A DNA stretch of 19,497 nucleotides from a virus (lineage: Duplodnaviria > Heunggongvirae > Uroviricota > Caudoviricetes): the IMG/VR virus record IMGVR_UViG_2600254985_000001; one strand, 5' to 3'. Shown here one piece after another: positions 16,578 to 19,497 of this stretch; position 1 is the first letter of the stretch, and each line of letters opens with the position of its first letter. A program made the translations under genes and the position numbers. Under the pieces are notes generated by a model. It worked only from the letters and a program-made list of their open reading frames with translations. It searched no databases and was not told the DNA's origin.

Positions 16578-16862
16578 CTACCATAAACTCACACCTTTCC
16601 CACGTTTATACTCGCTTGTCTTCTTGTTATGGCAAGACTTACAAAGGAGTTGTAGGTTATCAGGGTTCAGCGCTATTTTCCAATCATCAAGATTTTCCCA
16701 AGTTAGTTCTATAATATGGTCTACTTCGTATTTTTTAGCACCGAATGCGCCACATCTTACGCAAGTCATCTTATCACGTTGTCTTACATAATCACGGACA
16801 GCCAACCATTCTTTTTTATTATACCAACCACTTTCTCGAACTGTGTCAACATTATACTTCAT
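16578..16862 (-). CDS. HNH homing-type endonuclease (terminase-associated)
   Basis: 94-aa ORF with paired Cys and an H-N-H core ([48 protein letters not shown]). Overlaps the terL 3' end by about 11 nt. Confidence 0.85.
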
Positions 16863-18474
16863 CTGACACCGCCATTTCTAAAGCCATTGTCAAAGCAACA
16901 GTAGGGTCAATTTTATCTTTTTCAAGTTTTTTAGTATACATATAGTCCCCATTTTGTCCGATTTTAACAGCAGTATTATTTAAAGCCCACTGCATGACTT
17001 TTTGGTTATGGATAAGTTTATTTTCCGCTAACTTAGATTTTAATAGCTTGATATAGTCACTCATTGAGAAACCTTGTCGAATTGCTCTTTGGTTGTCTCC
17101 ATCTTTGTCAAAGAAATAACGCTCAATCAGCCCTTTTAAAATTTCATAGCGAGCTGGGTCGTATCCGACTTTTCTAAGTCTGCACCCTGTTTTGGTTCTA
17201 AAGTCATTAATATGCGGTATTAAGTCGTTCACATTGATGTATTCCGTATCAAGTAAGATTAGTTCGCCTCTGTCAACGAATTCAGTCCATAACTCTTGTT
17301 GTTCTGTGTCCAGTTGCTCATATTGAGACCGTACAGAGAAAGTTAGCGTATGGCTGTAAGTTTTACCCTCTAACTCACAAACGAACGATACAGCGGTTAA
17401 ATCGCCAATTAAGGATAGGTCAATTCCGACATAAGTTCTATTTTTATTAAATACAGATAAATTAAAGTCTGTTAGTTTAGTGTCTTGCGGAGTGAAGTAG
17501 TAAGCTGTATCCTGCATAGGTAAGCCCATATTAAACGCTAAGAACTTATTCTGTAACGCTGGGTCTCCTTGCGCAAGCTCGTACTCCTCAATAACTCCTG
17601 ACCACTTAGGAACATTGCCAATAAGTGGTAAAGCCATAGTCCAATTCTTTTTATCTTTGACCTGCTCATGATTTTCTAGCATGTAAAGCAAGCCGAATGA
17701 CCTATCATTGTAAAATTCTTCTTCTGATTTGAATCGTTCAACAAGTTTATCATAAAGTCCGTCGCGTTTAAGTCCGCCAGAAGTGATGTAAATACTTTGC
17801 CAGTTATCTTGTTTTTGACGTGAACCTTTATTAACTGACTCTGTTATATCCTCGCCATAGGTATGGACTTCATCAAATATATTAAGGGAACTGTTACCAC
17901 CTTGCGCTCGTAAAGTATCATTTGTTTGCTTTTTAAAAGTGGTTTTGAAAGACGTAAATTCTAGCCCTTGTTTTGTACTCTTGAAAATCTTGTTTTCATT
18001 GTACACTCTTAATGTATCACTTGCTTCCGTTTGATTCCTAACTTGGTCAAATACGTGTCTAGCCTGTGTATTATCGTATGCAATAACTAGACTTTCTCCG
18101 CCATATTGTCCGCCTAAAATCATCCAGTTAAGCACGCGCGTAGCCATTAAACTAGACTTACCTGATCCACGGCCTAAATTAAGAAAAATCTCATTAATTA
18201 GGTTGACTTGAACACCTTTTTCATCAACCATATCATAGCCTAACATTAACTCATACCACCATTTTTGTGTTGGAAGTAGCTCAATTTTCATCAGGTTACC
18301 AGTAGTCAGGTAGAAGTTGTCTTCTATCCATTCAATAGCTTGCGTAACACGGTCATAGCGATAAATATATTTGTTATGAATACGTATTTGCTTCTGAATA
18401 GTCTTGCGAATGTACTTATTAATAATAATGCCGTTTTCTTTGTTGTATTCCAACATTTTATTTAAATAATACAT
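16852..18474 (-). CDS. terL: terminase large subunit
   Basis: 540-aa ORF with a Walker A-like motif (LGRGSGKSS, around residue 100) and acidic residues in the C-terminal nuclease region. Lies downstream of terS. Confidence 0.9.
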
Positions 18475-18485
18475 TCATTCCCTTT

Positions 18486-18716
18486 CTATTCAAATACTGA
18501 TTGCAAATATTCATCTGAATATGGACACCAACCTTCGTCATCAGTCATTTCTTTTTTAAGTTGTTTCCAGTTTGAAAACTGACCAATAATAGAATCGTTG
18601 TCTCCACACGTCTCACAATAATCTTCAACTTCTTCTAATTCTTTTTCTGAAGTATTTTCTGACATCAGATAAAGTCCTCCGCCCAAATGGTCTTCAACTA
18701 CCCAATATTTTTTCAT
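18486..18716 (-). CDS. small acidic Cys-containing hypothetical protein between terS and terL (76 aa)
   Basis: ORF with an ATGA overlap with the terS stop. Contains CETCGD and WCPY, a possible small zinc-ribbon-like fold. No functional assignment. Confidence 0.5.
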   Translation of the reverse strand: MKKYWVVEDHLGGGLYLMSENTSEKELEEVEDYCETCGDNDSIIGQFSNWKQLKKEMTDDEGWCPYSDEYLQSVFE

Positions 18717-19237
18717 TCAAACCCCTCTGGGACTTTGATTTCTGGCGTTTTATACTTACTTAGCTTATAGTCGTCAAGTTCTTCAATTTTAGCTTTAAGG
18801 TCATGAGCACTTGATTCTTCCTGTTGCAATCTCCGCCATTCAGTAGGGTTATAAAGTTCAGGGTTTCCAGCCTTAGCAACCATCATTGCTACCAAGCTAT
18901 CTTTATCAAGTTCTTTCTCTTTAACCTTTACTTTTTCAACGTTTCCGTCAGCGTCATATATTGTTTCTGTTTCTTTTAGCGTTCTGACTGTCAGTTTGCT
19001 CGCTAAGGCACTTTCGGCTAGTTCTAATAGATTTCCCCTAGCAATGCTTTTAGCTTCGTCATACGCCTTTATATTGTCATCTCGCCACTTTCTAAAAGTT
19101 TTAGCCGAACAATGCAAACTGGTGTAGATTTCTCTGTCATTACAGCCTGATTCAATTTTATCAATGATTTGGCTAAAAAGCGGTTCTTCATACATCTTAG
19201 GTAAAATTGTGGGTCTGCCACCTTTTTGTGTTTGCAT
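18713..19237 (-). CDS. terS: terminase small subunit
   Basis: 174-aa ORF, first gene of the late operon, preceded by an AAGGA ribosome-binding site. N-terminal helix-turn-helix-like region and acidic C-terminus. Sits immediately downstream of a repeat-containing non-coding region. Confidence 0.7.
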   Translation of the reverse strand: MQTQKGGRPTILPKMYEEPLFSQIIDKIESGCNDREIYTSLHCSAKTFRKWRDDNIKAYDEAKSIARGNLLELAESALASKLTVRTLKETETIYDADGNVEKVKVKEKELDKDSLVAMMVAKAGNPELYNPTEWRRLQQEESSAHDLKAKIEELDDYKLSKYKTPEIKVPEGFE

Positions 19238-19311
19238 ATTATCCTTTCTTTTAAATGTGGTTATATCGTTTAAAGCCTATATTTTCGTTCCTGTGAGCGT
19301 TAAGTTAATTA

Positions 19312-19330
19312 GACTTAAATTATATCGTAA
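19312..19330 (-). promoter_or_regulatory. candidate late promoter -10 element (TATAAT on the minus strand at 19319..19324) upstream of terS
   Basis: Perfect TATAAT hexamer on the minus strand about 80 nt upstream of the terS start. No convincing -35 hexamer at 17 bp spacing. Confidence 0.25.
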
Positions 19331-19394
19331 TGATATAAACACGCTCATACGAGCCAAAATATTAGCATATAGCCATATAATTTCCTTTTTATTT

Positions 19395-19451
19395 GAGATT
19401 TAGCGAGATTTAGCGAGATTTAGCGAGATTTAGCAAGATTTAGCGAGATTT
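19395..19451. repeat. tandem 10-bp direct repeat array (GAGATTTAGC, five units plus a partial unit; the fifth unit has G->A at its first base)
   Basis: Directly visible: gagatttagc gagatttagc gagatttagc gagatttagc aagatttagc gagattt, in the non-coding region upstream of terS. Confidence 0.9.
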
Positions 19452-19464
19452 TTCTTTTTGATTT

Positions 19465-19497
19465 TTTGGGGGATTCGCAGCCGGGAGTCCTTTGTGC
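19465..19497. other. GC-rich segment at the window edge, candidate cos or packaging-site region
   Basis: GGGGGATTCGCAGCCGGGAGTCCTTTGTGC is strongly GC-rich against an approximately 35% GC background. It contains an imperfect inverted repeat (GGATTC ... GAGTCC) and sits just beyond the repeat array upstream of terS. Confidence 0.3.

Follow-up and report, generated by a model that had tools for sequence, protein, structure and literature searches.

An 11-nucleotide cohesive-end sequence points to the cos site at the left genome end of a lactococcal Skunavirus phage

The window, by which we mean the whole stretch of viral DNA analysed here (19,497 nucleotides), carries all of its long open reading frames (ORFs) on the minus strand. 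Over its full length it matches, on the reverse strand, the genomes of Lactococcus phages of the genus Skunavirus (936 group) with identities of up to 98.4% (JG7, AF6, BM12 and others), the GenBank phages JG7 and AF6 both being approximately 98% identical to the window. As judged from these alignments, the window corresponds to the leftmost 19.5 kb of a Skunavirus lactococcal phage genome, read as its reverse complement. On the minus strand the order of genes is terS, a 76-aa ORF, terL, an HNH endonuclease gene and the portal gene. The terminase small subunit (terS; 18713-19237, minus strand; 174 aa; Pfam PF07141, E = 4e-121) is annotated as terS in AF6, sk1 and P008, and its product shares at least 94.8% identity with that of each relative compared, the figure for the TerS of sk1 being 98.9%. 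The terminase large subunit (terL; 16852-18474, minus strand; 540 aa) comprises nuclease and ATPase domains (PF20441, E = 1e-35; PF03354, E = 3e-16), and the HNH endonuclease (16578-16862, minus strand; 94 aa; PF01844, E = 2e-12) is the orthologue of sk1 ORF3/HrdP, with 92 of 94 residues identical (98%). The product of the 76-aa ORF (18486-18716, minus strand) gave a sub-threshold match to a Zn-binding domain (Cmr2_Zn-bd, E = 0.005). In sk1 there is no ORF between terS and terL, which abut, and in bIBBF14 the position of the 76-aa ORF is occupied by a gene that carries the annotation HNH homing endonuclease.

Between the terS start codon and the right edge of the window, several sequence elements follow one another. 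One of them is an array of 5.7 direct repeats of the 10-bp unit GAGATTTAGC (19395-19451), in which the motif AGATT (AATCT on the coding strand) occurs six times at 10-bp spacing and from which a further 157 bases on the minus strand lead to terS. Direct repeats of AATCT, five to six in number, are typical of 936-type cos regions, as are putative terminase binding sites (PMC6105707), and we regard the array, by analogy, as a putative set of TerS binding sites and thus a putative counterpart of cosB. The repeat unit differs between phages, being GAGATTTAGC in the window and of the TAGATTAAAA type in P008 (L003, 1780-1840); at a further locus (L019, 3050-3130) the unit GGGCTTTGGC is repeated five times and lacks the AGATT core that is said to be typical. 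Between the array and the start of terS there is also an imperfect inverted repeat with arms of 40 nt (19261-19300 and 19341-19380), 73% complementary and separated by a 40-nt spacer. A sigma-70-like promoter match (9/12; minus strand, 19357-19330) lies inside this inverted repeat; promoter-like matches in the region were not in excess, two being found and 2.0 expected from shuffled sequences.

On the other side of the array a conserved T-rich tract, TTTTCTTTTTGATTTTTT (19450-19467), possibly an intrinsically bent or easily melted segment, separates the repeats from a G-run with an ATT, GGGGGATTCG (19468-19477), which is one arm, the left one, of the inverted repeat that has been published as flanking cos. 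It is followed by a variable spacer, CAGCCGGG (19478-19485), and by the 11 nucleotides 5'-CACAAAGGACT-3' on the minus strand (AGTCCTTTGTG on the plus strand; 19486-19496), an exact match to the published cohesive-end sequence, an 11-nt 3' overhang, of 936-group phages. A single nucleotide, 19497, completes the window.

The 11-mer occurs exactly and only once in the window, within the segment (19465-19497) that the first-pass annotation, made from the sequence alone, had singled out as a possible cos site. According to Table 1 of Murphy et al. 2016 (PMC4759559), who ligated phage DNA and Sanger-sequenced the joined ends, CACAAAGGACT is the cos sequence of 23 of the 38 listed 936-group phages, and the other 15 carry the one-base variants CACAAAGGTCT, CACAGAGGACT and CACAAAGGGCT. 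The same 11-nt cohesive ends, located between the middle and late genes, were described for 936-type phages by Chmielewska-Jeznach et al. 2018 (PMC6105707), and the same 11-mer was used by Kupczok et al. 2018 (PMC5913663) and in a 2021 genome announcement (PMC8050962). The comparison with mapped 936-group cos sites that had been suggested at the outset therefore yields identity. Two database records are informative about the chemistry of the ends. The record of P008 (AF090369) spans the junction, and the homologous 11 nt bear the annotation 'site of 3' protruding cohesive ends' in it. In the sk1 reference record, the sequence starts with CCTCTTTGAAAATC..., directly after the 11-mer, and ends with ...TTTTCAGCACAAAGGACT, that is, with the 11-mer last; this is the layout expected for the top strand of DNA that carries 3' overhangs.

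Taken by itself, the match to CACAAAGGACT is weak evidence, because 72 of 200 shuffled sequences contain a match to the 11-mer with at most one mismatch. The argument for cos follows from the match being exact and, at the same time, located at the homologous position associated with termini, where 248 nt separate the inner edge of the overhang from the downstream terS start codon (19237). On these sequence grounds, 19486-19496 is almost certainly the cos nicking site of a Skunavirus (936-group) phage and 19465-19485 its left flank, in agreement with the initial proposal. The first-pass annotation had also linked the segment to TerL and an HNH enzyme, and genes for TerS, TerL and the packaging-associated HNH protein are indeed all found downstream of it. 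The Skunavirus cos is an already described feature, treated in older papers on 936-group phages to which the studies named above refer, and it routinely sets base 1 of such genomes. The original report on the sk1 site is said to be that of Chandry et al. 1994, in which the terminase sites R1-R4 were reportedly defined.

To describe conservation across the region, we aligned 58 distinct sequences upstream of terS that had been picked by similarity of TerS rather than by their cos sequence. This TerS-anchored set replaced scans of IMG/VR with fixed DNA patterns, the counts of which were biased by the pattern and in which a T-rich pattern drew unrelated contigs. Mean identity to the window was highest in the overhang (0.93; 19486-19496) and in the T-rich tract (0.93; 19452-19467), lower in the G-run (0.86; 19468-19477) and in the 8 nt adjoining the nick (0.78; 19478-19485), and lowest in the remaining spacer (0.77; 19238-19394) and in the repeat array (0.71; 19395-19451). 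The overhang and the T-run thus form conserved islands amid variable intergenic DNA (0.71-0.77). Within the variable spacer beside the nick only the last two G residues are nearly invariant, 19484 being kept in 50 and 19485 in 51 of 53 sequences of this alignment.

The position of the 11-mer relative to the ends of related genomes was read from 376 phage records in GenBank that match the last 398 bases of the window. Among the best 40 of these, the alignment runs from 19100 to 19496 and window position 19496 is base 1 of the record in every case; the same correspondence was found in 31 of 60 rows sampled evenly down the match ranking. Since many GenBank starts are set by homology (PMC8050962, PMC5913663), these record starts are partly dependent evidence. 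The end matches of near relatives measure 387, 397 and 407 bp, indicating that the copy number of the repeat differs in 10-bp steps. BLAST alignments stop at 19496, and the remaining base, 19497, is the first beyond the overhang: it is the C of a conserved CTGAAAA, a part of the right genome end that follows the cohesive-end sequence in records spanning the junction. Of 11 sequences in the TerS-anchored alignment that extend this far, 10 have a C; contigs collected by pattern are not independent evidence for it, as CTGAAA was demanded by the search pattern. From these comparisons, the sequence from which the window derives appears to cross the cos junction by 1 nt. The window contains the left half of the cos region only, the right-end sequences and the other arm of the inverted repeat lying outside it. 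The earlier suggestion that the window ends near or at a genome terminus can accordingly be made precise, as it ends one nucleotide past the position at which all 40 of the best-matching GenBank records begin. In AF6 (L002), genes for tRNA-Trp and tRNA-Pro are annotated near the right end (record positions 29853-30064, approximately 500-700 bp from the end), outside the region covered by the window.

Assembled sequences provide a further view of the ends of these molecules, one that is independent of curation. Searching IMG/VR with TerS as the anchor gave 80 loci, and the contig ends at most 354 nt upstream of terS in 76 of them. Four metagenome contigs (L174, L186, L213 and L228) start exactly at CCCGG, corresponding to window position 19485. 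In IMG/VR contig 2728368981_000001, native sequence ending in ...GCTCTTCCGATCT is joined to CCCGGCTGCG (CCCGGCTGCGAATCC...), which we take to be an Illumina TruSeq adapter; the joint lies at ...GCCGGG, window position 19485, and is ambiguous by up to 2 nt, as native sequence and adapter both go on with AG. An adapter at this position fits a 3' overhang that was trimmed in end repair, because end repair would have preserved a 5' overhang by filling it in. In other contigs, Nextera adapters or fold-back chimeras, both typical artefacts at the ends of real molecules, occur within a few bases of 19485. Loci at which adapters or fold-back sequences were seen at or near the cos end are L147/L203, L175, L178, L181, L190, L219, L221, L226, L158, L112, L193 and L014. 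Untrimmed TruSeq and Nextera adapters in public Skunavirus contigs are useful as signatures of termini, yet they are also a contamination of the databases. At one locus (L160; IMGVR_UViG_2684622568_000001, 21660-24581) the left end of a Skunavirus genome is fused at ...GCAGCCG to unrelated AT-rich sequence and lacks the 11-nt overhang, which could mean that the assembly is chimeric or that the element has been rearranged.

The work of others, or the sequence directly, shows what the 11-mer is, that it lies at the genome end in relatives, that the ends of P008 have 3' polarity and that HrdP is essential in sk1; the following scheme is our proposal for how the site would work. TerS oligomers would bind the helically phased 10-bp array of AATCT motifs, which lies approximately 35-90 bp inside the genome; we counted against such binding that the repeat unit is variable while TerS is nearly invariant. 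Bound TerS would position the nuclease of TerL on the concatemer, and the T-rich tract may help to bend or open the DNA. The minus strand would then be nicked at 19485/19486 and the plus strand, 11 nt away, at 19496/19497; these staggered cuts would generate complementary 3' overhangs of 11 nt, with CACAAAGGACT-3' at the right end, and ligated ends would read ...GGGAGTCCTTTGTGCTGAAAA...; that the present phage is cleaved here we infer from its relatives. Translocation would proceed rightward from this end, from terS and through the window. HrdP would be needed for productive packaging, possibly because it makes one of the two nicks, the assignment of enzymes to nicks being conjectural.

The last step is the one at which a different explanation deserves the most attention. 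In sk1, the only phage for which this is shown, HrdP is essential for infective virions and dispensable for DNA replication and protein synthesis (PMC12967558). It is conceivable, though on balance we doubt it, that TerL alone cleaves cos and that HrdP acts later, for instance by removing branches from the DNA as a resolvase and so allowing packaging to be completed. Purified HrdP cuts DNA non-specifically, with or without cos in the substrate, and does not co-elute with TerL; proheads of a hrdP deletion mutant had an expanded appearance, as if packaging had begun, and the authors of that study consider a resolvase-like role equally possible (PMC12967558). The TerL encoded in the window, moreover, has a complete nuclease domain (PF20441). 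However, HK97 and the staphylococcal cos phages depend on a terminase-associated HNH protein to cleave cos, according to Kala 2014 and Quiles-Puchalt 2014 as these are cited in PMC12967558, and in every Skunavirus genome the HNH gene follows terL and precedes the portal gene. A late role as a resolvase is further at odds with the presence in Skunavirus genomes of a separate Holliday-junction resolvase (a RuvC-like resolvase is annotated in AF6). In our scheme HrdP may contribute to cleavage by the terminase; direct nicking of cos by an HNH protein is unproven in the genus Skunavirus (PMC12967558).

What had drawn attention to the segment was its base composition. The 33 nt at 19465-19497, TTTGGGGGATTCGCAGCCGGGAGTCCTTTGTGC, include 20 G+C (60.6%) as compared with 35.4% for the whole window, so that the description of a GC-rich block of about 30 bp was accurate, as was its placement, in the sense of the minus (coding) strand, upstream of the 10-bp tandem array and of terS. 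A content of at least 20 G+C per 33 nt is reached in only two places of the 19.5-kb window; the other one, at 17555-17590, belongs to the coding sequence of terL. The 18 nt at 19468-19485, however, exist as three alleles. The GC-rich allele found in the window, GGGGGATTCGCRGCCGGG (given as GGGGGATTCGCAGCCGGG in the comparison with sk1 and P008), differs from an AT-rich allele, GRGAGATTTKYAAAGRGG, that has a G+C content of 33-44%, was found in 16 of 54 sequences and is carried by sk1 (GAGAGATTTTCAAAGAGG) and P008 (GGGAGATTTGTAAAGGGG), which serve as classical references for the genus and its cos site, among others; the third allele is composed entirely of G and C, and in it the T-tract is replaced too. 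The loci compared for this purpose were L169 (sk1), L003 (P008), L182, L183, L192, L228, L235, L019 and L035. Since the block has 33-44% GC in sk1 and P008, GC richness is not required for the site and is a property of this allele, not of cos function.

The second clue, an imperfect dyad, fared less well. GGATTC (19471-19476) and GAGTCC (19485-19490) are present as described, complementary at 5 of 6 positions with an 8-nt spacer, but the structure that they can form is at the level of chance (a single-strand DNA fold of 19460-19497 gave -3.2 kcal/mol, z = -0.74, with 49 of 200 shuffled sequences folding as well or better) and the dyad is not conserved, being missing from the AT-rich allele of sk1 and P008. 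Neither GC richness nor the internal dyad thus defines the site. The possibility that the block serves as a regulatory hairpin, for instance as a transcription terminator or attenuator between middle and late genes, and not in packaging has in its favour that the block is intergenic, between the rightmost genes and terS, and that a weak hairpin can be drawn. This reading of the dyad was rejected: besides the chance-level fold, no terminator-like site was found by a terminator scan of 19000-19497 and no match to Rfam was obtained, both the dyad and the GC richness are missing in sk1 and P008, and the physical DNA ends map inside the block, so that a regulatory hairpin is highly improbable.

It is barely imaginable that packaging follows a headful (pac) mechanism and that the end of the window is an arbitrary assembly break, for although assemblies can break beside tandem repeats, as some metagenome contigs do within the array, which says nothing specific for pac, the ends of independent isolates and metagenome contigs agree to the base, 11-nt cohesive ends, end ligation and dissociation of cos fragments by heat or formamide have been reported (PMC4759559, PMC6105707), and P008 is annotated with 3' protruding ends. 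An assembly artefact was excluded on account of conservation across hundreds of independent genomes.

The half-site GGATTC lies within 19468-19477, the left arm of the inverted repeat known from the literature to flank cos, and its true partner is the right arm, AAATYYCCC, which is found 4-6 nt past the overhang and outside the window. When arms were compared across the junction, those of P008 (GGAGATTT/AAATCTCC) and of L236 (GGGAGATT/AATCTCCC) paired at 8 of 8 positions, and those obtained by joining the window to the right end of AF6 (GGGGGATT/AATTCCCC) at 7 of 8; the all-GC allele is devoid of the flanking inverted repeat. With arm quality ranging from 8/8 down to absent, no covariation between the arms was evident.

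The site shares its features with the cos regions of well-known relatives. In the Skunavirus phages sk1, P008, bIL170 and bIBB29 the identical 11-mer is found in the same place, approximately 250 bp upstream of terS, and the window has in common with them the architecture of a G-run/inverted-repeat arm, a T-rich tract and 5-6 AATCT repeats at 10-bp spacing. The 11-mer itself, its location between the rightmost (middle-expressed) genes and terS, and six AATCT repeats were all found in the window, which differs from sk1 and P008 in allelic detail only: 18 GC-rich as opposed to AT-rich nucleotides, a repeat unit GAGATTTAGC as opposed to the TAGATTAAAA type, and the additional 76-aa ORF.

Likenesses extend to more distant systems. 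The ends of HK97 are 3'-protruding and cohesive, with a length of about 10-11 nt, and in this they are like Skunavirus termini. The head genes are HK97-like as well, the prohead protease of sk1 being annotated as a member of the HK97 family. As in packaging systems of the HK97/phi12-SaPIbov5 type, the packaging module contains a small HNH protein required for productive packaging (sk1 HrdP, PMC12967558); in Skunavirus, however, its gene lies between terL and the portal gene and not beside terS at the other end of the genome, the cos sites have no sequence similarity, and cooperative nicking by HNH and TerL is hypothetical (PMC12967558). The cos of lambda (cosQ-cosN-cosB) is similar in having a nicking site with partial twofold symmetry, repeats for the small subunit and a bendable segment on the terS side, and packaging that runs from cos towards the terminase genes; it differs in its 12-nt 5' overhangs, in the involvement of IHF at cosB, in needing no HNH protein and in its unrelated terminase subunits. 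By analogy, then, the site may be said to resemble lambda cos in logic and the HNH-associated systems of the HK97 type in end chemistry and gene set.

The value of the identification is mainly one of annotation, and it brings no new biology. It shows the window to be the reverse complement of the late region, from packaging to lysis, and fixes its orientation and the true left end of the genome; the 11-nt overhang identified here is usable for end-ligation PCR or for transduction of cos plasmids in Lactococcus. Two by-products are mildly interesting, namely the three-allele polymorphism beside the nick and the variability of repeat units despite a nearly invariant TerS. Across carriers of the different alleles TerS differs at 1-9 residues, almost all of them outside residues 6-63 (95-100% identity), and no covariation was found between the TerS sequence and either the cos-proximal allele or the repeat unit. 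The alleles might tune the efficiency of cos cleavage or packaging, for example through melting of the ends or stability of the overhang, or they might mark frequent recombinational exchange at genome ends, a pair of suggestions that we hold to be unlikely as they stand. If either were true, the sequence recognised by the Skunavirus terminase would be much smaller than the annotated cos region.
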